Program-made: the position numbers and the translations under genes
Source: Chloroflexota bacterium
GTDB taxonomy: Bacteria > Chloroflexota > Dehalococcoidia > Lucifugimonadales > UBA3495
Direction of reading: 5' to 3'
Assembly (NCBI GenBank): GCA_028874075.1
Contig: JAPPLU010000073.1
Span: 16,973 to 80,972, forward strand
Length of the DNA stretch: 64,000 bases
Shown: positions 8,419 to 58,062 of the stretch, one piece after another
Layout: each line of letters starts with the position of its first letter
Position numbering within the stretch: position 1 is the stretch's first letter
Notes under the pieces: generated by a model
The model's database searches: none
What the model saw: only the letters and a program-made list of their open reading frames with translations
Told to the model about the DNA's origin: nothing

Positions 8419-9654
8419 CTAGGGGAAGCCGGGGCCGCCCACCGGCGGGCCTTGGGGTATCCTTGGGGCCGACAGTTGCACCTGGTCGGCAACCCAGGCA
8501 TATACTTCGCTGTTGAAGTTGATGGTCAGCCATTCTTCGTCGGAGCCGCGGGAAACCTGGTCTTCGAACCATTCTTCCGTTCTTTGCTGCGAAAGCTTGT
8601 TCCGGATGGTCAACTCTCGTCGCAGGTTCGCGCGCTCCTCAGCCGACATGCTGTTGAAGGTTTCCTCGTCAATATCTGCCAGGTGCTGGAAGCCTCGCAG
8701 CGGCCGCACCTCGGGCCCCGAAATCTTGTGGATGATGTACACCCCTTCTTGGGAGAAGTAGGGGTCGCTGATTTCCCCTACTGGCAGGGCTTCCCGGTTG
8801 CGGTCCGGATTGCCGAAAAGGATGTCGTCAAGTTCGGGGAAAGCGCCCTGGGGAACCCAGCCTACGTAGCCCTCGGGGTCGGTGAAGCCGTCGGGAGTGC
8901 TGACCTCCGCGGCAACCACCCCGAAGTCCTCGCGCACCAGGCGGTTACGCACCTCCTGGGGGTCGGCAGGGCCGTCCTGCTCCATTCGCATCCACGCCAC
9001 TTCCACCTGTTCAATTTCCGCGGGAATGCCCGTGTCTATCAGCAGGGAAAGCTGCTGTCGAAGCAGTTCCTCCTCCACCAGGCGGCGGTATTCATCCTCG
9101 GAAAGTTTTGTAGAAGTAAGGAAGGTCGTCAGGGCGTTCTCGTACTCCTGGTCCAGCTGCCCTTCGTCCACCAGCTCGTTGGGGTTTTGGACCGGTCGGA
9201 ATCGGCGGCGCAGTTCCTGGTCAATGTCCTCGTCGGTAACGCTGAATCCCAGGCCCGGGGCGGCCTGCCGGACAATTTCCGCCTGGATCATGTCCTGTAG
9301 GTATTCAAATGGGACGGTGCTCAGGTCAACCCGCCCTCCCTGGTAGCGGTTGATGCCTTGCAGCACCCGGATGCGGTCCACCAGGTCGCCCATGGTAAAG
9401 CGGACGTCCCGCACCTGTCCGGCCAGTTCCCTGGGTGGGCGGAAGAACTCCAGGTAGTAACCCACGCCCACTATGCCCATAACCACCAGGATCAGGGCCA
9501 CTCCTATGCCAATGGCAATTTTCTGCCTGCGCCGGTCCCGTGCTCGGCGCTCCGACTGCCCTTGGGCTTCTTCCGCTGTTTGCCGGCGTCGCCTGCGGCG
9601 GCGGTCGCCAGGCGCCTGGGGTATAGACTCTTCGGGAGACCGGGGAAACACCAT
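8419..9654 (-). CDS. membrane-anchored SurA/PpiD-like peptidyl-prolyl isomerase (parvulin-type)
   Basis: 411-aa ORF with an Arg-rich N-terminus and one TM helix (IAIGIGVALILVVMGIVGVGYY). This is followed by a SurA-N-like helical region and a parvulin-like segment (GWVPQGAFPELDDILFG...VGEISDPYFSQEGVYIIHKI). Confidence 0.6.
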   Translation of the reverse strand: MVFPRSPEESIPQAPGDRRRRRRRQTAEEAQGQSERRARDRRRQKIAIGIGVALILVVMGIVGVGYYLEFFRPPRELAGQVRDVRFTMGDLVDRIRVLQGINRYQGGRVDLSTVPFEYLQDMIQAEIVRQAAPGLGFSVTDEDIDQELRRRFRPVQNPNELVDEGQLDQEYENALTTFLTSTKLSEDEYRRLVEEELLRQQLSLLIDTGIPAEIEQVEVAWMRMEQDGPADPQEVRNRLVREDFGVVAAEVSTPDGFTDPEGYVGWVPQGAFPELDDILFGNPDRNREALPVGEISDPYFSQEGVYIIHKISGPEVRPLRGFQHLADIDEETFNSMSAEERANLRRELTIRNKLSQQRTEEWFEDQVSRGSDEEWLTINFNSEVYAWVADQVQLSAPRIPQGPPVGGPGFP

Positions 9655-9805
9655 CCTTGACCTCTGGGGGATCCGGTGGATTTTGTCTGCTCTCCGGGCT
9701 ATACGTACGGACCCGGGGAGCGGACTCTAGTATCTAACAAAAGCCGAGCTTTCCGGAGGGAAAGCTCAGCCGACTACAGGAAATAACCGGACAAGGTTCC
9801 GGGAG

Positions 9806-10216
9806 TTAGCGGCGGATGCCGCTACGCATGGTCTGCATGGGAACGAAGGGCAGCAGGGCCAGGTGCCGGGCCCGCTTGATGGCATTGCTCAGGGCTCGCT
9901 GGTGCTTGGCGCAGACACCACTCTTGCGGCGAGGCTCAATCTTGGCCCGGTCCGAAACGTATCGGCGCAGGCGCTCGTAGTCCTTGTAATCAATGTGCTT
10001 GACGTGCTCCACGCAGAAGGAGCAGACCCGCCGGCGCGGCGCATAACGCCCCCGGGGACGTCCACCCGGACGGGGCCCTCCCTGCGGACGGGGCCCTCGC
10101 TGCTGGTAGCCGCCAGGACCGCCTGGGCGGGGTCCCTGGCCCGGGCCTCCCGGGGCGGGCCTGTCCTGGGCGGGTTGCGCCGGGGCTGTAGGTGTTGCCG
10201 GTGCGGGTGTCGTCAT
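9806..10216 (-). CDS. rpsR: 30S ribosomal protein S18 with a 60-aa P/G/R-rich N-terminal extension
   Basis: The C-terminal part, [59 protein letters not shown], is canonical S18. Gene order is rpsF-ssb-rpsR. Confidence 0.9.
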
Positions 10217-10290
10217 TCTGCTAGTCTTCCTTCGCTATTGATCGGGCGCTATTGATCGGGACTGTCGCCGGGCCTGGGTTAAACGCCGGG

Positions 10291-10779
10291 CTAGAAGGGC
10301 AGATCGTCAATGTCATCGGGCTGGTTGCCGTAGCCTCCGCCCATACCTCTGCCTCCGCCCATGCCCCCGCCGTAACCGCCGGGGTTGTTGTAGTCTTCCA
10401 TGCCGCCCCGGCCTGCATCCCCACCGTAGGGGGCGCGGTCCTCGTCCATGCCTCCCCCGCGGGACCCGAGCATCTGCATTTCCGTCATTCGCACGTCGTT
10501 AGAAACGCGGGGCTGACCATCGTTCCCAGTGAATATGCGGGTGGTCAGGGTGCCTTCAACATACACCTGGCTGCCTCGGGTCAGGTACTGGTTGCATATC
10601 TCTGCCTGACGGCCCCACGCGTTTATGTTGAACCACATGGTCTCTTCCCGCTGCTCCCCGTCGGCAGTACGGTAGCGGCGGTTGGAAGCTACGCTGAAGG
10701 ACGTTACACCCTGTCCACTGGGGGTGTAACGCATTTCCGGGTCTCGACCCAGGTTGCCTATTATTACTATTTTGTGCAA
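10291..10779 (-). CDS. ssb: single-stranded DNA-binding protein
   Basis: OB-fold N-terminus (KIVIIGNLGRDPEMRYTPSGQGVTSFSVASNRRY) and a Gly-rich tail ending in DDIDDLPF. Confidence 0.92.
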   Translation of the reverse strand: MHKIVIIGNLGRDPEMRYTPSGQGVTSFSVASNRRYRTADGEQREETMWFNINAWGRQAEICNQYLTRGSQVYVEGTLTTRIFTGNDGQPRVSNDVRMTEMQMLGSRGGGMDEDRAPYGGDAGRGGMEDYNNPGGYGGGMGGGRGMGGGYGNQPDDIDDLPF

Positions 10780-10790
10780 GGTGACCTGCT

Positions 10791-11465
10791 TTAGGCCTCA
10801 GACTGTTCCTCTTCCGCAGGAGCTTCGCCTCCCTCGGCGGAAGCTTCCGCTTCGGCTGCGGTCTCCGTCTCCCCTTCGGCAACAGGAGTCTCAGTTGCGT
10901 TCTCTGCTTCCGCCACCGCTTCGGCGGTGGCTTCTGCCTCAGGCGCGGCGACCTCCGCAGGAGCTTCCGCTGTTTCTGTTTCTACGGCTGCCTCAGGGGC
11001 CGCTTCGGCAATTGATTCAGTAGTAGCTTCGGCGCTGGCCCCGGCCTCAGCGGCCGGAGTTGCGGCTGCCTCACCCTCGGTCGCGGCGGGAGCCTCGCCA
11101 CCCTCGGCAGCAGGCGCGGCTGCAGCAGGCGCGGGCCTTGCCGCCACCGGATCGGGCAGAATCTCCCGGTTGGGTATGGAGATTACCAGGGAGCGCAGCA
11201 CCCGCTCGTCCATGCGCAGGTAATTCTCCAGAGCCTGGTTGAAGGGAGTTTCCGTGGAGAACCGGATCAGGCGGTAGTTGCCTTCCAGAAAGTGGTACGA
11301 ACCCTGGTGGATGGGATACGCCAACCGGCGGGTGCCCCAGGGCTGTTCCTGGAAAATGTCCCCGTTCCGGTTGGTTATGAAGTCGTTAATCTGCCCGTGT
11401 GCCTCGCTAGTCTGGTCCTGGCTAAGCATGGGGCTGAGGATGGTAACAAGCTCGTAATGACGCAA
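10791..11465 (-). CDS. rpsF: 30S ribosomal protein S6 with a ~120-aa acidic Ala/Glu/Thr-rich C-terminal extension
   Basis: TTG start at 11465 with AGGAG 7 nt upstream. MRHYELVTILSPMLSQDQ... is the S6 N-terminus. It is followed by ssb and rpsR. Confidence 0.88.
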   Translation of the reverse strand: MRHYELVTILSPMLSQDQTSEAHGQINDFITNRNGDIFQEQPWGTRRLAYPIHQGSYHFLEGNYRLIRFSTETPFNQALENYLRMDERVLRSLVISIPNREILPDPVAARPAPAAAAPAAEGGEAPAATEGEAAATPAAEAGASAEATTESIAEAAPEAAVETETAEAPAEVAAPEAEATAEAVAEAENATETPVAEGETETAAEAEASAEGGEAPAEEEQSEA

Positions 11466-11507
11466 AAAACACTCCTGACTATGGACCCACTCTGAAACTG
11501 TTCGCCG

Positions 11508-11536
11508 ATTATAACATTGGCGGGTGGGCCGCTCAA
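11508..11536 (-). promoter_or_regulatory. sigma70-type promoter of the rpsF-ssb-rpsR operon
   Basis: Minus strand reads TTGAGC (11531-11536), a 17-nt spacer, then TATAAT (11508-11513). This is about 40 nt upstream of the rpsF start. Confidence 0.5.
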
Positions 11537-12781
11537 CTAGGAATCAAGCCCCGGAACCGGGAATGTGGAGGTAAGCTCCTTGACCGCACCCTTGACCTGC
11601 TTCATCACCTGGTCGTCGCCCATATTGTTCAGGACCTGGGAAATGAGGCGGGAGACCTCCTTGGTCTCGCCCTCACCAAATCCCCGGCTGGTAATGGCCG
11701 GAGTGCCCAGGCGCATGCCGCTGGCCACCCGGGGCGGCCTGGGGTCGAAGGGAATGGCGTTCTTGTTGGTGATGATGCCCACCGACTCGAGGGCCGTCTC
11801 CGCCTGCTGGCCGGTAATGTCCATGGGCGTCAGGTCCACCAGGATCAGGTGATTCTCGGTACCGCCGGAAACCAGCCTTAGTCCCGCCTCCGAAACCTCC
11901 GTGGACATGGTGGCGGCGTTGGCCACCACCTGCTGGGCGTAGCGGGCAAACTCGGGCCGCAGGGCCTCTCCGAAGCAGACCGCCTTGGCGGCAATGATAT
12001 GCATCAGCGGCCCTCCCTGCATATAAGGGAAGACGGCAAAGTCAATTTTGCGGGCCAGGTCGGCGGTGGACAGGATGAACCCGCCCCGGGGACCCCGCAG
12101 GCTCTTCTGGGTGGTGGAAGTTACCACGTGGGCGTGGGGGAAGGGCGACGGGTGCGCCCCACCGGCGATCAGTCCGGCGATGTGGGCCATGTCCACCATC
12201 AGGTACGCCCCCACCTCGTCGGCAATGGCCCGGAACCGGGGAAAGTCCAGTATCTTGGCGTAGGCGCTGCAACCCGCCACAATCAGCTTGGGCCGGTGTT
12301 CCCTGGCCAGCCTTTCAACCTCGTCGTAGTCGATCAGCTCGCTGTCCTTGTCCACCCCATAAGGTACGAAGTTGTAAAGCTTGCCGGAGAAATTGACGTT
12401 GGCGCCGTGGGTCAGGTGGCCCCCGTGGGACAGTTCCATGCCCATGACCGTGTCGCCCGGCTCCAGCAGCGCGAAGTAGACCGCCATGTTGGCCTGGGCG
12501 CCGCTGTGTGGCTGGACGTTGGCGTGTTCGGCCCCGAACAACTCCTTCGCCCGGTCAATGGCCAGCGACTCCACCACGTCCACGTGTTCGCAGCCGCCGT
12601 AGTAGCGGCGTCCGGGGTAGCCCTCGGCGTACTTGTTGTTCATCACGCTGGTCTGGGCTTCCAGCACCGCCTTGCTGGCGTAGTTTTCCGAGGCGATGAG
12701 GACGACGCAGTCGCGCTGGCGGGCGTCCTCCATCTCAATGGCGCGAAAGACATCGGGGTCTTGCTGGGCGAGCAGGGACAT
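11537..12781 (-). CDS. glyA: serine hydroxymethyltransferase
   Basis: 414-aa ORF with [18 protein letters not shown] and [14 protein letters not shown] (PLP lysine) motifs. Confidence 0.93.
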
Positions 12782-12891: not shown

Positions 12892-12921
12892 AGTATACCG
12901 TTAGGGCACTTGGGGTGTCAA
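12892..12921 (-). promoter_or_regulatory. sigma70-type promoter upstream of glyA
   Basis: Minus strand reads TTGACA (12916-12921), an 18-nt spacer, then TATACT (12892-12897). This leaves a leader of about 105 nt before the glyA ATG. Confidence 0.5.
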
Positions 12922-13169
12922 AGTTGGGGGGCGGGGCGGCCAGGACCGATTACAAAGCTTTCCTTGAACCGTTCTTGATGATCTTGTCGGGCTATGCACC
13001 ACTTGGGCGGATTTCCTTCAACAGGCTCAGGATGAGGGCAGAGAGCGGATATTGCTTAGACTTGTTGATCGTCTTGTAGGGCAGGCTATATCGACTATAA
13101 AATTATCGATTTATTCCTTCCCTATTTGTTGGTAGCGTTTCATTCCAGGTGGTTCAAAATGCCGGAAAC

Positions 13170-13194
13170 GTAGGGGCAGACCTATGTGTCTGCC
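13170..13194. repeat. REP-like hairpin GTAGGGGCAGAC-CTATGT-GTCTGCC
   Basis: 7-bp stem GGCAGAC/GTCTGCC (13175-13181 and 13188-13194). A degenerate second copy (GTACGGACCTGCGTGTCTGCCC) lies at 15809-15830. Confidence 0.6.
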
Positions 13195-13216
13195 TTGGTG
13201 TCCCGAACGAAACCAC

Positions 13217-13966
13217 CTAAATTGGAACGCTGCCTATTTGTTCCATGATTCTTGCTCCCAGCACTTCTATGGCTATAGTTGACTCTCTATCCAACTGAAT
13301 CACTGCCGGTTCATCTTCATCGGGGTTGTATTGAACCAACCGAAGCCCAACGCGTAATGAAGTAAGAATGAGAACAGCCCAAATAGCCATCGACATCATC
13401 ACATTTTTGTAATGATACTCCTCTCCCATGACGTCAATTCCATAAGGACTGCTATTGAGAAAAACTGATCCCGTACTGAAGTGAGAAAACATTCGGCTCA
13501 TCTTGCTGTAAACAATGTTATCCAGGACGTTAGGTTGGTCTAACCCCTTAAGTTTGTTACGCACTTTGGATGCGCTGAACTTCGAGTCCCGCTGGTTATG
13601 ATTGGAGGACAAGAAAGATTTCAGTTCTTTCTCGTCGCTGGTTAACAGCAGCATGAGATTGCATCCTTCCCCGATAGTTCTCAAAGTAGATAGAGCCTCC
13701 GCAACGTAACCCTTTTCTAGAAGCGTAAGCGCAGCGAAAGCATGGCTGACCATGCGCTCCAGCATGAATGTTAATTCAATCTCGACGTGGGAACGCTGTA
13801 TGACGGCAGCGTCCCTTAGGACATAAAGGGAACGAATAGCCTTATCAAGTACATCAGATAATTCCGTATCTTTTTCCGAATGAATCCACGACCAAAACAG
13901 TGATTCCATTTGATTATCGAATTCCCTACGGGCGTGGTACAGAGAGTCTCCTGAAGGTATTTCCAT
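13217..13966 (-). CDS. hypothetical protein (low-GC orphan)
   Basis: Track ORF is 13217..14080. ATG 13966 is preferred because AGGAG lies 6 nt upstream. A spot count of 13441-13500 gives 25/60 G+C (42%). I recognise no family motif. Confidence 0.6.
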   Translation of the reverse strand: MEIPSGDSLYHARREFDNQMESLFWSWIHSEKDTELSDVLDKAIRSLYVLRDAAVIQRSHVEIELTFMLERMVSHAFAALTLLEKGYVAEALSTLRTIGEGCNLMLLLTSDEKELKSFLSSNHNQRDSKFSASKVRNKLKGLDQPNVLDNIVYSKMSRMFSHFSTGSVFLNSSPYGIDVMGEEYHYKNVMMSMAIWAVLILTSLRVGLRLVQYNPDEDEPAVIQLDRESTIAIEVLGARIMEQIGSVPI

Positions 13967-14144
13967 ACAAATCTCCTGAGGAATCCTAGTCGGAGGGTGC
14001 CAGCGTTCATAAGTTGGAAACTGAAGCGAACGTATGGAACTCACCATGAATATTGAAGCTAGACATAAGGCCGAATTCACAGAGGGGAAGGCCTCTTGGT
14101 CCTAGAGGATCCGTTGGAGGAAAGTACGAAATTCTGGCCCACCC

Positions 14145-14330
14145 TTATCGTCCTGTCACCTTAGGAGGATTGTACATTTTCGGCTCAAAATGAAGCTCCA
14201 ACGCCTCCCTTAAATTGGAACGAGCCTCTTCCTTGCTTCTACTCTGGCTTGCCACATTCACTTCAACCGCTTGAGCAACCCACCAGTCACCTTCCTGCCA
14301 TACCAGTGCGGTGAATCTTCGCTTGCCCAT
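14145..14330 (-). CDS. hicB: HicB-like antitoxin N-domain protein (UPF0150 type), orphan
   Basis: 61 aa. FTALVWQEGDWWVAQAVEVNVASQSRSKEEARSNLREALELHF fits the HicB/UPF0150 fold pattern. It has no DNA-binding C-domain and there is no adjacent HicA ORF. Confidence 0.6.
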   Translation of the reverse strand: MGKRRFTALVWQEGDWWVAQAVEVNVASQSRSKEEARSNLREALELHFEPKMYNPPKVTGR

Positions 14331-14379
14331 TTACCTTTCCTCCACAAGTAGCTCGAAAATCCATCTTACCATCCCACCC

Positions 14380-49567: not shown

Positions 49568-50929
49568 TTGGAATACATAAGCGCCACTGCCCACCGACTA
49601 TCTCGACCCTCGCCACTGAAGGCAATACTCTTTCTTCCTCTTATCCTGATTGCCGCATTCGTCATGGCAGCCTGTCAGGCCCAACCCACCGCAACTCCTG
49701 CAAGTACGTCGACGCCCGTCCCGCCGCCAACTCCCAACATCCAGGCCACCATTGACGCGGCGGTTGCAGCGGCCATCAATGTCGAGGCTTCTGCTGCCGG
49801 GGATGCTTCCGCCGAGGAGACCACAGACGAGCCTACCGAGGAACCAACGGAAGAACCTACCGAGGAACCGATGGAGGAACCAAAGGAGGAACCAACGGTA
49901 GCTCCCGAACCCACCCATACACCACAACCAACAGCTACGCCTCAGCCCACGGCAACGCCCGTGCCTACGGCAACACCAGCTCCAACGGCCACGCCGCAAC
50001 CTACGGCCACGCCGGTACCGCAGCCCACGGCCACGCCCCTGCCCGCAGCAACGCCTACTCCGCGGCCTCCCACGCCCACACCCACGCCGGAAGTGGTGAC
50101 TATTACGAAGATTGACAGCAACGGCGCCCATACCTGCGTCCTGTTCTCCGATGGCTCGGTTGACTGCTGGGGTAGCGATGTTAACTCCCAGCTGAGCGTG
50201 CCGCTGGGCGTCACCTTCTCGGACATCAGCGCGGGAAGCTCCTTCACCTGCGGCATCCAAGCCGACACCGAACGTGCCGGGGCCGCTTTCTGCTGGGGCA
50301 AGGATCTGCTGGGTACCTTCCAGGTGGACCGGAGCTTGAGGCTGAAGGACATAGATGCCGGCGGCCAACACATCTGCGGAATCCAGCTGGACGATACCAT
50401 CGTGTGCTGGGGAAACAACGACCACCATCAGACAGAGGCGCCCCTGGTGCAGACCTTCATTGACGTGACGGCCGGAGGGGACTTTTCCTGTGGCTTGAGG
50501 GCCGACGGAACGGTCCTTTGCTGGGGAGCCAACAACTATCAGCAGACGGACGTTCCGGAAGGAGAACGGTTCCTCAGCATAGACTCGGGAGACCGTCATA
50601 CCTGTGGGCTGCAGGATCTGGGAAAGGTACTTTGCTGGGGCAGCGGCCTGGCCGGGCAGACGGAACCGCCCGACGTGGAGGGCTTCCTGGACATCGGCGC
50701 AGGGAAGGAATTCACCTGCGGCGTCCAGGGCGACGGCACGGTTGCCTGTTGGGGCAGGGGATCGCAGCGCGACTTGGAACCGCCCGACAGGAGGGGATTT
50801 GAGATCATCAGCGGCGGCGACCAGCATACCTGCGCCGTGCGGCATGACGGGGTGGTAGTCTGCTGGGGCGGCAACAGGTACCTGGGAGCCACCAATCCGC
50901 CGGACTACCTGGAAGCTCCCCGATATTAG
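49568..50929 (+). CDS. membrane/lipid-anchored RCC1-repeat (seven-bladed propeller) protein with EEPT and PTATP tandem repeats
   Basis: 453 aa. It has an N-terminal hydrophobic anchor (AILFLPLILIAAFVMAAC), an (EEPT)n stretch and a (PTATPxP)n linker. Seven repeats of the H(T/I)CG...G.V.CWG...(Q/L)...P type follow. Confidence 0.75.
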   Translation: MEYISATAHRLSRPSPLKAILFLPLILIAAFVMAACQAQPTATPASTSTPVPPPTPNIQATIDAAVAAAINVEASAAGDASAEETTDEPTEEPTEEPTEEPMEEPKEEPTVAPEPTHTPQPTATPQPTATPVPTATPAPTATPQPTATPVPQPTATPLPAATPTPRPPTPTPTPEVVTITKIDSNGAHTCVLFSDGSVDCWGSDVNSQLSVPLGVTFSDISAGSSFTCGIQADTERAGAAFCWGKDLLGTFQVDRSLRLKDIDAGGQHICGIQLDDTIVCWGNNDHHQTEAPLVQTFIDVTAGGDFSCGLRADGTVLCWGANNYQQTDVPEGERFLSIDSGDRHTCGLQDLGKVLCWGSGLAGQTEPPDVEGFLDIGAGKEFTCGVQGDGTVACWGRGSQRDLEPPDRRGFEIISGGDQHTCAVRHDGVVVCWGGNRYLGATNPPDYLEAPRY

Positions 50930-51891: not shown

Positions 51892-52443
51892 TCAGGAGGA
51901 AAATGATTCTCGCTGGCCGATCTCGTTTATCAGCTTCTCGTACAGGGTAACCCCGTCCCTCACCAGCAACACCACCGCATCGTATGAGTGGGGCAGTTGA
52001 AGTTCAATCAGTTTCTCCATAATCTCGTCCACCATGGGCTGGTAAGAGCTGTCCAGGTATTCGCTCAGTGCGTCCAGGTTGTCCGCCATGTAGGATGCGG
52101 TGGTCAGGGAATTGGCGTGCAGGCGGCGCAATTGGTCCACCCTGTCCCTGGGAAGATTCAACCGTGCCCTGCCGAACAGGAACTCCTGCTCTCCGTAGCC
52201 GTCTTCCGCCACATAGGTCGCAAACTCTTCCACCACCCGGCGGGCGTGGATCAGTGTCCTCCTGGCCTGGAACCAGGTCTGCCGGAATTCCCCTGTTCGC
52301 TGGTTTTCGGTAAGAATTCTGTTCCTCCGCAGTTCCAGGTAAGCCCCGCCGCTTACCAACAGGCCCAACAGGGAAAAGCCTATGGCGAATGGGTCTGGGT
52401 CAACCAGTTCTGCGGTTAATGCCCTCTCTTCAGGCATGTACAC
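51892..52443 (-). CDS. hypothetical protein (one N-terminal TM helix, helical C-domain)
   Basis: 183-aa ORF with a TM helix (FAIGFSLLGLLVSGGAYL). No recognisable motif. An AT-rich spacer (51806-51891) lies downstream. Confidence 0.5.
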   Translation of the reverse strand: MYMPEERALTAELVDPDPFAIGFSLLGLLVSGGAYLELRRNRILTENQRTGEFRQTWFQARRTLIHARRVVEEFATYVAEDGYGEQEFLFGRARLNLPRDRVDQLRRLHANSLTTASYMADNLDALSEYLDSSYQPMVDEIMEKLIELQLPHSYDAVVLLVRDGVTLYEKLINEIGQRESFSS

Positions 52444-54511: not shown

Positions 54512-54523
54512 GGGGTGTTCGGT

Positions 54524-55141
54524 TTAAGAGATGGCTTCCCCGAGGGCACGGTAAAATACCTGGAAGCTGTGTGAGCAATTGCGTTCTGGAACCATGTGTG
54601 CTGCCATGTCCCTTGCGGCCTCTATCTTTCGGAGGCCACCCTTGAAATAATTTCGCCTCTGGAGCAGCCTTTCAAAGGACTCGCATGTTCCTCCCGCAAC
54701 GGCGTCCGGGTCGCGATAACGGGCTTGACCCAAGGAACTGCGATTGATTCGCGGATAAGCCATGCAAATTGCTTCCGGGTCACCGATGTACCAAGCCTCC
54801 AATTCTTCAACTACGACTCGGTTTGCTACTTGCCATATTCCATGTGAACCTCTGGTTCGAGTAATTAGGCCAGCCCCATAGGCCGCTTGTTCGAGAGTGT
54901 TCTTCAGTCGAAGGCAACTGTCATCGTCCCGGTCAATTATCACGAAAATGGTCCAATGGGATGGCAACCATTGGGCATACGCTCGTAACCTGGATGGCAA
55001 TTTGGCTAGAAGGTCTTGCTTTCCCTGATATGAGTGGGTTTCATAGCTACAATTTTCAGGTAGTACGGAATCCAAGAATACCTCGAGAAAAGCCTCCATG
55101 GAAGGTTCCTCAACCAGGAATATTAGGTGACGTTCGTCCAT
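54524..55141 (-). CDS. DUF4276 family protein (Toprim-like acidic motifs)
   Basis: 205 aa with LIFLVEEPSMEAFL, FVIIDRDDD and VVEELEAWYIGD. It starts 5 nt after the upstream ATPase gene. Confidence 0.7.
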   Translation of the reverse strand: MDERHLIFLVEEPSMEAFLEVFLDSVLPENCSYETHSYQGKQDLLAKLPSRLRAYAQWLPSHWTIFVIIDRDDDSCLRLKNTLEQAAYGAGLITRTRGSHGIWQVANRVVVEELEAWYIGDPEAICMAYPRINRSSLGQARYRDPDAVAGGTCESFERLLQRRNYFKGGLRKIEAARDMAAHMVPERNCSHSFQVFYRALGEAIS

Positions 55142-55146
55142 GACTC

Positions 55147-56379
55147 CTAGATCAATGGGCCGACAAAAGTCCCCTGGTTAATGAGGGGATCGCCGATGCG
55201 AAAATGGCCTTCCATCCATAGATGTCCAAGCTGAGCGCCATTTGTAATGAAATCAGGAATTCCTTTGATTTCCGAAACGGTTAGGGCTTGGGAATAGCCT
55301 CTAGCGTCACGCCACAACACCCTCACTTCTTGGGGGCGGAGGGCGTTTAGAAAGAAGGGTGAATGCGTCGTTACCAGCAATTGGGTTTGCTCACTGGCCT
55401 TCTTACATTCCTCCCCCAGTTCGTGAAGCAACCGAGGGTGAAGGAAATTTTCCGGCTCTTCTATGCCAATGAAAGGAGGTGGATCCGGATCGTAGAGCAG
55501 CACCAGGTAGGCGAGCATTTTTAGGGTTCCGTCGGATGCGAAACGCGCCATCACTGGGTCGTCAAAGGGAGCGTCTTTAATCTGCAATAACAATCTCCCG
55601 TCAGGCATGGGATCTGACTTTACTTTTTCGAACCTGGGAACGCGGCGCTGAAGGGTGTTGGAAATACCTTCGAGGCGATCCGGGTGCTGTTCCCATAGGT
55701 ATTGGACCACATTGGCCAGGTTGTCGCCGGACTTGCTCAGGCGTTCATTAGGTCCCGCTTCAGGTTGCCCCCGTGCGCTGTCTGCTGAAAGGTAAGAGAC
55801 ATACCAACCGGCTATAAAGTTACGTAATGCCGCAACCCGAGGGTGCTGGGCAAATTGCCCCAAGGCACTCACGGCCAGAAGGTCAGGGGATTGCAACGGC
55901 TCTTCAAGTCTCTGATCATCCTCGTCTGGCAACTCACCACTGGTTGCGCGTCCTTGACCCTCGTGGTACTCCAGGAAGCGGAAGGGCTTGCCGTGGCTTC
56001 TCCTCCGCCATTGAAGCCACTCCGACTGCACTACCGGGCGTCCCTGAATCTCATCAACTTCCAAGTGGTAGGTAATAAGGGGCTGCTTCGGTCTTTCCCG
56101 ATACTTTACTTCAATGGTGACAGGGCCACCCGATCCCCGTGTCTTGAGCTCCCTGGCTCTACCGCGCCTGTCCCAGGCAAACCTCAAGCCGTACTGAAAA
56201 CACTCCGAAAGGAACGCAAACACATCGAAAATAGTGGATTTGCCGCTGCCATTGGGGCCAAGCAGAACGGTCAGAGGCGTCAAGTCTTTTAGCTCAACGT
56301 CACGCAGGGCCCTGAAGTTCTGCACCTTCAAGGACGTTATTCTGGGTGGTGTCCTTTCTGGGCTAACTTGGGAATTCAT
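55147..56379 (-). CDS. AAA_15/AAA_21-type ABC ATPase (SMC/OLD-like)
   Basis: Track ORF extends to 56580. I moved the start to ATG 56379 ([25 protein letters not shown]). Motifs are Walker [10 protein letters not shown], signature-like SDGTLKML, Walker [14 protein letters not shown] and H-loop [10 protein letters not shown]. Confidence 0.8.
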
Positions 56380-56777
56380 AAGTGATACAGCCTCTCTGGG
56401 AATCACGCCTGTGGATGCATCGCGACTTTGTAAGGATACCACCAACGAGCAATTGAACGCATTGCAAGTGGGAGCGGGCACTCGCCCATCCTCCAAAGTT
56501 GTGATGCGTCCTGCAGAAAGGCTCAGGCTGATATAAGTTTGACCGTAGAAAATTGCCTGCGTGGCCCAAGTATGAGGCATGCCTTTGATGCTCTTGGCTC
56601 AACAACAATTGCAGGCAACCACTGGAACAGGGTTGATAAAAGGCATAATCCGGACCATTTAGGTTGTTCGTTTGCCTTTGGCGCCGCACTTGCGAGGCGT
56701 TAGCTAAGGCGCGTTTCGAACCCGCCCCTACCAGCTACGAACCTCTCAAATTGAAACGGTATCGTTGTCCACCTTGT

Positions 56778-57656: not shown

Positions 57657-57861
57657 TTCTCCACCTCCGCAATTTCAGCAACAAGTTGCGCAGTAAGTTT
57701 TCCGGTTATTCGGTTCACAATGTTAGCAGAGTCTACGGGACTCCGTTTGGCGCCGGACAGACTCATTTGGTCGCAAAGGCAACGTGACTGGGCATGATCC
57801 GGGTGATCCTTAGACAGCATCGGGATGCGCGGGACTAATCAACAAGCGGGCACAGAGCCGG

Positions 57862-58062
57862 ATTTTTTTGTTTTCCGCACCATTTTGGGCCGTTTTGGGC
57901 CGTTTCGTATTTGAGACCGGGGTTGGGGAGCGATGAAACGGTCCAAATTCTGGACCGGACCTGCGGGAAGTCCTATCTATTTTTCCTGGAAAAGTGGCCC
58001 GCATTCCTCGTTTTCCGGGCCGTTTTGGGCCGTTTTGGGCCATTTAAGTGCCTCACTCCCGG
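57862..58062 (-). repeat. ~200-bp iteron-bearing element, copy 2 (inverted relative to 40243-40440)
   Basis: The plus strand shows the complement units ATTTTGGGCC/GTTTTGGGCC at 57882-57902 and 58011-58041. See the alignment blocks in the findings. Confidence 0.8.

Follow-up and report, generated by a model that had tools for sequence, protein, structure and literature searches.

A stand-alone HEC-01-type ATPase-DUF4276 gene pair, a candidate anti-phage module, in a variable slot beside selB of a Dehalococcoidia bacterium

A 64,000-nt stretch of contig JAPPLU010000073.1 from a Chloroflexota bacterium (Dehalococcoidia), hereafter the window, whose numbering is used unless a contig is named by an L-number, carries on its minus strand a two-gene operon convergent with selB, encoding an ABC-type ATPase and a small DUF4276 protein (Table 1). 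Judged by its profile matches, the pair is an ordinary member of the catalogued candidate anti-phage system HEC-01 and would be called automatically by PADLOC. The evidence favours, with a probability of about 0.6, a stand-alone HEC-01-type two-gene candidate anti-phage module which was acquired horizontally, occupies a variable breakpoint site at the selB 3' end and is maintained by purifying selection. A preliminary description of the locus had assigned the pair to the OLD/PARIS/AbiL design class as an ABC-type AAA_15/AAA_21 ATPase with a DUF4276 partner; the coordinates of its open reading frames (ORFs), the motifs it quoted, the 5-nt and 12-nt gaps and the low-G+C line were all confirmed in the sequence, and the assignment was borne out by Pfam and PADLOC matches.

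The ATPase matches AAA_21 over the whole Pfam model (4.7e-34, 1-304/304), AAA_15 (1.3e-19) and, just above the cut-off, SMC_N (1.9e-10), and shows the ABC order of Walker A (GPNGSGKST, residue 41), a signature-like motif (SDGTLKML, residue 282), Walker B/D-loop (residue 303) and H-loop (residue 334), all at least 98% identical among 74 homologues. Weak RecF and RecN matches are found at its N-terminus, and its best sequence matches in the PDB are PtuA and a Thermus OLD-family protein. The small protein matches DUF4276 (PF14103) over its full length (6.2e-24, 1-191/192), and the Pfam matches of both proteins, which had been proposed as a check, are far beyond chance. In PADLOC, the ATPase matches HEC-01A (PDLC04182) at E 6.5e-162 and 537 bits, with residues 12-397 on profile positions 2-404/406, and the protein encoded 5 nt away on the same strand matches HEC-01B (PDLC04202) at E 5.4e-79 and 263 bits, with residues 5-204 on 2-201/204. 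The window pair thus resembles HEC-01 near end to end in both proteins, in gene order, in its two-gene operon and in the combination of an ABC ATPase with a small Toprim-assigned partner. Payne et al. (bioRxiv 10.1101/2024.01.29.577857) described HEC-01, or "Hma-embedded candidate 01", as an ABC ATPase plus TOPRIM protein, a gene pair discovered within Hma and further multi-gene systems, whereas the window pair stands alone between selB and an SDR gene, and embedding in Hma or another multi-gene defence system, the basis of the HEC-01 discovery, is not seen at this locus. The pairing is already known, catalogued and partly tested, and the locus adds nothing categorically new; its minor added interest lies in vertical maintenance, in the variable selB-flank slot and in the recurrent embedding of relatives in type I restriction-modification (R-M) operons. 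As a point of nomenclature, PDLC04144 (named HEC-01B) matches the ATPase at 2.2e-118 and PDLC04143 (named HEC-01A) matches the DUF4276 protein at 1.4e-26; the A and B names appear to be swapped in this PADLOC subtype, perhaps owing to reversed gene order.

Table 1. The HEC-01-type gene pair and its immediate surroundings (window coordinates).
Feature	Position	Strand	Evidence or remark
HEC-01A, ABC-type (AAA_21/AAA_15, SMC/OLD-like) ATPase, 410 aa, ATG start	55147..56379	-	Pfam, PADLOC
HEC-01B, DUF4276 protein, 205 aa, ATG start	54524..55141	-	Pfam, PADLOC
Junction between the genes, 5 nt, TAGGAGTCATG	55142..55146	-	AGGAG Shine-Dalgarno-like sequence over ATPase stop codon
Non-coding region 5' of the ATPase gene, 398 nt, GC 0.515	56380..56777	-	
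Gap between the convergent selB and DUF4276-gene stop codons, 12 nt	54512..54523	.	

The two genes are tightly linked across the family. A one-genome-per-species scan returned at least 464 loci, of which the best 80, used for the linkage and identity figures, span Chloroflexota, Acidobacteriota, Pseudomonadota, Spirochaetota, Planctomycetota and others. The co-conservation that had been proposed as a check was found in 79 of these 80 loci, where the ATPase gene lies directly upstream of the DUF4276 gene on the same strand, the exception beginning at a contig end. Of the 73 pairs tallied for spacing, 33 have a 4-nt overlap between the genes and 14 a 1-nt overlap. The small protein is 48-59% identical across phyla among the best-matching loci. 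It has 986 relatives in a 90% clustered database and, at E ≤1e-3, 1,998 representative clusters at 50% identity; HEC-01 is thus widespread (~2,000 clusters at 50% identity), with conflicting validation.

The composition of the pair is that of foreign DNA. Its G+C content is 52.8% compared with 66% in selB and the SDR gene (31/60 G+C in line 55261-55320), and G+C at third codon positions is 0.58 in the ATPase gene and 0.50 in the DUF4276 gene versus 0.85 in selB and 0.82 in the SDR gene, in agreement with the lower-G+C patch described earlier. Of 59 family loci compared, 34 have a pair that is more than 0.03 lower in G+C than its flanks, and 4 have one that is higher. The closest relatives come from Dehalococcoidia metagenome-assembled genomes; the same pair convergent with selB is present in L001, L002 and L006 (selB 94-96% identical) and in one contig with selB 87% identical (L004/L008), where the other neighbours differ. 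Compared with L001, L002 and L006, the ratio of nonsynonymous to synonymous substitution rates (dN/dS) is ~0.04 for the ATPase and 0.10-0.12 for the DUF4276 protein, similar to the flanking housekeeping genes, at a dS of 0.35-0.8. The pair is compositionally foreign and probably horizontally acquired but not a recent arrival, being syntenic with selB in relatives at this dS and under purifying selection. A chromosomal copy under such strong selection argues that HEC-01 is functional outside R-M or Hma contexts. Against L002 and L006, the pair has a higher dS (0.65-0.80) than selB and the SDR gene on either side of it (0.39-0.50), and against L004 it is saturated whereas selB is at 0.86, which hints that the cassette may turn over, recombine or exchange alleles faster than its flanks.

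Comparison with relatives lacking the pair places it in a variable slot. None of the 35 metagenome contigs whose selB is 71-92% identical to that of the window carries the pair; among them is L086, whose selB is 92% identical and which shares the window's two genes upstream of selB. The homology of the window to L086 stops just beyond the selB stop codon, and on the left the variable or foreign segment is bounded by the convergent gap (Table 1). In L086, selB is directly followed by a low-G+C (0.46-0.50) DUF4145 gene (L086:7963-8655, minus strand), with a PADLOC PD-T7-4 match at 3.5e-13, and then by glyA-rpsF-ssb (8875-11422, plus strand); in the window, glyA-rpsF-ssb is found at 10294-12781 on the minus strand, ~40 kb from selB and on the other strand, which is consistent with a ~42-kb inversion having one breakpoint at the selB 3' end. 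No flanking direct repeats were found around the pair and neither an integrase nor a tRNA gene marks the site, which therefore appears as a variable slot at a rearrangement breakpoint and not as a classical integration site; no clean empty site was found, because the right flank differs between lineages. The earlier impression that the pair "looks inserted" thus holds as regards foreign composition and a variable site, but not as regards recent insertion or the repeats, tRNA gene or integrase that could accompany it. The selB 3' flank is a small variable breakpoint slot with different defence-type genes in sister genomes and offers a handle for finding defence genes in the poorly studied Dehalococcoidia. 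A functional link between selB and the pair was rejected, as only close Dehalococcoidia relatives show the adjacency, which at least 70 other loci lack.

Genomic contexts elsewhere in the family connect the pair to defence. Among the 78 loci whose neighbours were tallied, the order hsdM-hsdS-[pair]-hsdR occurs in 13, with hsdS directly upstream and hsdR directly downstream, and these type I R-M genes are the only strongly recurrent neighbours. On a Meiothermus taiwanensis plasmid the order is DUF262-hsdS-DUF4433-macro-[pair]-hsdR, and on Synechocystis pSYSM a 31%-identical pair lies amid toxin-antitoxin (RelE/HigA, DUF86), HNH and phosphorothioation (dnd) methyltransferase genes. The preliminary description had proposed a defence pair; the R-M operons and these two annotated plasmid islands speak for this in the relatives, whereas the window pair itself is solitary and lies in no defence island. 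At five loci of the family, another AAA_21 ATPase, belonging to a different HEC-01A subtype (PDLC04175, 4.4e-134), is encoded within a few genes of the pair, which suggests tandem HEC-01-like systems; at one of the five it is the gene directly upstream of the pair (L012:7330-8358, plus strand).

The hsdS-hsdR slot is the one occupied by prrC and rlo genes, by prrC in the EcoprrI locus, and the embedding points to a possible PrrC-like guard function of the pair in some genomes. PrrC itself consists of one protein whose nuclease domain is of another kind, and the window locus lacks an R-M system. Generalized to the whole family, the pair would be a restriction-linked guard like PrrC or PARIS, which backs up type I R-M, senses anti-restriction proteins or the loss of R-M and fires a nuclease, the window copy being orphaned or serving a distant R-M system. 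Beyond the slot shared with prrC, the discovery of HEC-01 within Hma and other multi-gene systems agrees with such a role. So does MADS, an eight-gene, methylation-linked system whose ATPase MAD3 is homologous to that of the window and whose mad5 we take to encode a methyltransferase. The mad5 gene can be deleted only when mad2 or mad3 is also deleted (bioRxiv 10.1101/2023.03.30.534895), tying the homologous ATPase to a methylation-dependent system. Approximately 80% of the loci, including the window and its syntenic relatives, nevertheless have no R-M genes within 7 kb, and the window pair is under strong purifying selection without R-M genes and must therefore act autonomously in this lineage; a guard role is considered unlikely as a general explanation. 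The recurrent hsdS-[pair]-hsdR embedding does provide a testable trigger hypothesis, namely anti-restriction sensing.

The same patchy distribution across phyla, foreign composition and tight two-gene operon could be expected of a selfish addiction or toxin-antitoxin-like module, in which the DUF4276 protein would be a nuclease toxin checked by the ATPase, with no real anti-phage benefit. Toxin-antitoxin genes do occupy nearby variable slots (DUF433/DUF5615 in L001 and L002; RelE/HigA and DUF86 on pSYSM), and one published phage test was negative. Such modules thrive on mobile elements, yet the family was found in only 7 of 72,556 plasmid records and 1 of 50,697 phage records; one phage test was positive, and mad3 and mad4 contribute to phage defence by MADS. 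A purely selfish role is accordingly considered improbable, bearing in mind that addiction and abortive-infection roles are not mutually exclusive.

The nature of the small protein is central to the proposed function. It carries the motifs LVEEPSMEAF at residue 9, IIDRDDD at residue 68 and VVEELEAWY at residue 110, and E11, E12, D70, D72, E112, E113 and E115 are invariant in 53 DUF4276 homologues. The AlphaFold2 model of the full-length protein (predicted local distance difference test score, pLDDT, 91; predicted template modelling score, pTM, 0.89) shows a beta-alpha-beta-alpha-beta-alpha-beta-alpha core with strands at residues 4-10, 31-37, 63-70 and 105-110, followed by a helical C-terminal half (~120-205); a model of the core alone (residues 1-128) has a pLDDT of 83. 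E11/E12 follow beta1, D70/D72 end beta3, and E112/E113/E115 follow beta4. The layout of Toprim domains, with a Glu after beta1, a DxD after beta3 and a four-stranded alpha/beta core, is therefore found in the DUF4276 protein; for comparison, RNase M5 has IVVEGKDD ... IIFTDPD. The Toprim assignment of DUF4276, HEC-01B or MAD4 has been made in three independent papers, at least two of them, the Payne et al. and Menshen papers, through structure comparison. The Menshen paper placed DUF4276 and RloB together in the Toprim superfamily as new members and identified Mad4 as a DUF4276 homologue, and the PARIS paper listed "MADS3-4" among ABC-ATPase plus TOPRIM systems, using DUF4276 as a domain label. 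The Toprim fold of the window protein rests on its motifs, its secondary-structure layout and these published structural comparisons, and by analogy the protein is proposed to be a metal-dependent, Toprim-like nuclease effector. Automated gene calls frequently place the first residue of the DUF4276 protein at Met15 (P0001 and many cluster representatives), giving products of ~190 aa that lack strand beta1 and the invariant E11/E12; residues 4-14 are conserved, and the 205-aa form is therefore real.

Several results weigh against a Toprim nuclease in particular and an anti-phage module in general. Foldseek comparison of the full and core DUF4276 models with the PDB gave a best E of 1.3e-3, to generic four-stranded alpha/beta/alpha sandwiches, and no Toprim protein was among the top 50 matches. 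Alignment of DUF4276 with a 44-sequence RNase M5 family profile in hhalign gave E 0.098 and a probability of 0.6%, in a test that is weak because the profiles are shallow (effective sequence numbers, Neff, of 4.3 and 3.0), and no Toprim Pfam family was matched in relaxed scans (E up to 10) of 53 and 85 DUF4276 members. At the level of the locus, no defence gene, R-M system or integrase was found near the pair in the window and no tRNA gene within 20 kb of it, and in the family ~65 of the 78 loci have ordinary metabolic neighbours. The ATPase is unusually conserved, at 64-77% identity across phyla among the best-matching loci. As to function, Payne et al. (bioRxiv 10.1101/2024.01.29.577857) found that their HEC-01 representative did not protect Escherichia coli from classic coliphages or from a subset of BASEL phages, and PADLOC users still regard HEC-01 as an unvalidated candidate. 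In a cold-seep study, a different, synthesised HEC-01 is reported to have conferred protection on E. coli B against one or more of T7, T5 and T4; this result concerns another representative, and the text consulted does not give the strength of protection. The question of whether the pairing had been tested, left open in the preliminary description, can hence be answered with a catalogued system, one positive phage test and one negative.

The structural results bear on a further possibility, that the DUF4276 protein is not a Toprim nuclease but another Mg2+-dependent alpha/beta enzyme or a receiver-like regulatory domain with non-cleavage chemistry. Foldseek ranks lumazine synthase, PTS EIIA, CpaE receiver-like proteins and designed Rossmann folds above Toprim proteins, sequence and profile comparisons give no link to RNase M5 or Toprim Pfam families, and the only secondary Pfam signal in DUF4276 members, a weak one, is DUF3226. 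An hhalign comparison of the DUF4276 profiles with a single RNase M5 sequence was likewise not significant, two DUF4276 profiles run with hmmsearch over the sequences of the whole PDB returned nothing meaningful, and a scan of viral contigs with phage P2 Old, made for an OLD-Toprim profile, yielded only 9 near-identical relatives, the C-terminal query giving only fragments. On the other side, the E, DxD and further acidic residues follow beta1, beta3 and beta4 exactly as in Toprim domains, and the best, non-significant hhalign match to RNase M5 aligns only the beta3-DxD segment, with the DxD motifs in register. Foldseek against BFVD places Toprim-bearing proteins only at E 0.13-0.26, these weak matches including the DnaG TOPRIM domain, a primase/helicase and a topoisomerase. 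Together with the three published assignments, these observations make a non-Toprim protein improbable. The Toprim-like fold of the preliminary description stands as regards its E / DxD / E layout, whereas Foldseek and profile-profile comparison gave it no significant support.

The high cross-phylum conservation of the best-matching loci and the strong purifying selection also raise the question of a housekeeping DNA-repair pair like RecF (an ABC/SMC-like ATPase) and RecR (Toprim), with no role in immunity, whose architecture the window pair shares and to which the weak RecF and RecN matches at the ATPase N-terminus could point. The RecF match spans only the Walker A region, at 30 bits against a cut-off of 172, and the pair is patchily distributed, being missing from the 35 close selB-bearing relatives, has foreign codon usage and is found in R-M operons and variable slots, all of which make a repair function most improbable. 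An addiction module, a non-nuclease effector and a RecF/RecR-like pair are each considered less likely than an ATPase-controlled nuclease.

MADS is among the closest known systems. The window ATPase is homologous to MAD3 (PADLOC mad3, 7.2e-23; NCBIfam MAD3, 7.9e-32), and in both systems an AAA_15/21 ATPase is paired with a DUF4276 protein (MAD4 in MADS). The NCBIfam MAD3 score of 110.9 bits is, however, far below the equivalog cut-off of 420, the window DUF4276 protein matches only HEC-01 models in PADLOC, and none of the window neighbours examined with Pfam resembled any other mad gene, including the mandatory MAD6-8. MAD6, MAD7 and MAD8 are mandatory proteins in the detection model of the MADS authors, who also reported (Maestri et al., bioRxiv 10.1101/2023.03.30.534895) that defence becomes weaker when mad3 or mad4 is deleted. 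PARIS likewise consists of two stand-alone genes encoding an AAA_15/21-type ABC ATPase and a small partner with an E/DxD acidic site and serves as a mechanistic template, in which a sensor scaffold frees a nuclease upon a phage cue; the window partner is a DUF4276 and not a DUF4435 protein, with no AriB match in PADLOC and only DUF4276 in Pfam, and the AriA matches of the window ATPase are to generic AAA_21/AAA_15-type models. The AbiLi profile matches the window ATPase at 1.6e-26, whereas the small protein has no AbiLii or RloB (PF13707) match, in contrast to AbiL and RloA-RloB. OLD and Gabija share with the window pair an ABC ATPase of the same superfamily and an effector assigned to Toprim. 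In OLD and GajA a single polypeptide contains both the ATPase and the Toprim domain, and Gabija also comprises a helicase; the window has two separate ORFs, no helicase nearby and a small protein with a helical C-terminal half.

An ABC-ATPase sensor or regulator controlling a small metal-dependent nuclease, as in PARIS and P2 Old, is the best-supported model by analogy, with the window ATPase as the proposed sensor or regulator subunit. AriA/AriB and P2 Old each combine an ABC ATPase sensor with a Toprim tRNase, tRNA reportedly being cleaved once the nuclease is released or destabilised, and P2 Old has been reported as a tRNase gated by its oligomeric state. In the window pair, both genes would be co-translated from one operon, and HEC-01A would assemble into nucleotide-sandwich dimers or larger oligomers that retain or gate HEC-01B, whose alpha/beta core, through its invariant E / DxD / ExxE cluster, would bind Mg2+ or Mn2+ as in Toprim nucleases. 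A phage cue, possibly an anti-restriction-type protein or an aberrant nucleic-acid structure, would then shift the state of the ATPase and free or activate the nuclease. The nuclease may cut tRNA, the target favoured because of the AriA/AriB and P2 Old precedents, or DNA, as MADS genetics hint, and the infected cell would be arrested or the invader destroyed. In a more elaborate proposal, HEC-01 would be a PrrC/PARIS-like guard whose ATPase senses anti-restriction factors or the loss of type I R-M and releases a DUF4276 tRNase, the system being autonomous and vertically maintained in Dehalococcoidia at an integrase-free selB-3' hotspot that swaps HEC-01 and PD-T7-4-like cargo; as a whole, this proposal is speculative and has a low chance of being correct.

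The arrangement of the operon fits joint expression of the two genes, the overlap of the Shine-Dalgarno-like sequence with the ATPase stop codon (Table 1) suggesting translational coupling. The region 5' of the ATPase gene probably holds the promoter and 5' untranslated region of the pair. A block a few tens of nt 5' of the ATPase ATG is conserved among the window, L001, L002 and L006, and the distal part of the region shows large non-triplet indels among the same four. No sigma-70 consensus site was found in this region; a promoter and terminator scan returned no more sites than in shuffled sequence, with none in the gap 5' of the ATPase gene, and an Rfam scan of 51.0-59.5 kb gave nothing credible, including in that region. 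An alternative 477-aa reading of the ATPase from an ATG at 56580 was rejected because the upstream DNA has non-triplet indels among close relatives and the family ATPases are shorter, at 396-424 aa.

Further variable elements were observed around the locus. Besides selB, the neighbours of the pair in the window are an orphan ORF, a DNA-alkylation repair gene and SDR genes (Pfam). A 183-aa ORF of lower G+C (0.53-0.56) just upstream of selB (51892-52443, minus strand) matches nothing in Pfam or PADLOC; L086 has it at 92% conservation, and L001 and L002 have instead a DUF433 and DUF5615 gene pair of the toxin-antitoxin type, so that the 5' side of selB is variable too. A second low-G+C patch (0.45-0.47; 12900-14350) lies beside glyA at the other putative inversion breakpoint and contains a 287-aa ORF (13217-14080, minus strand), whose DUF5677 match is weak and sub-threshold, and a 61-aa ORF (14145-14330, minus strand) with a DUF7387 match, which to us looks HicB-like. 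A 453-aa protein (49568-50929, plus strand) with a hydrophobic N-terminal stretch contains six RCC1 repeats and a long linker of Pro/Thr/Glu-rich repeats. Finally, a 49-nt element with tandem GGGCCGTTTT units occurs twice, at 57857-57905 and 57997-58045, 140 nt apart and without an Rfam match, in a gene-poor stretch of ~600 nt with strongly negative AT-skew that extends from an SDR gene to Trm112-like and membrane genes; the corresponding gap measures ~620 nt in L001 and ~100 nt in L002.

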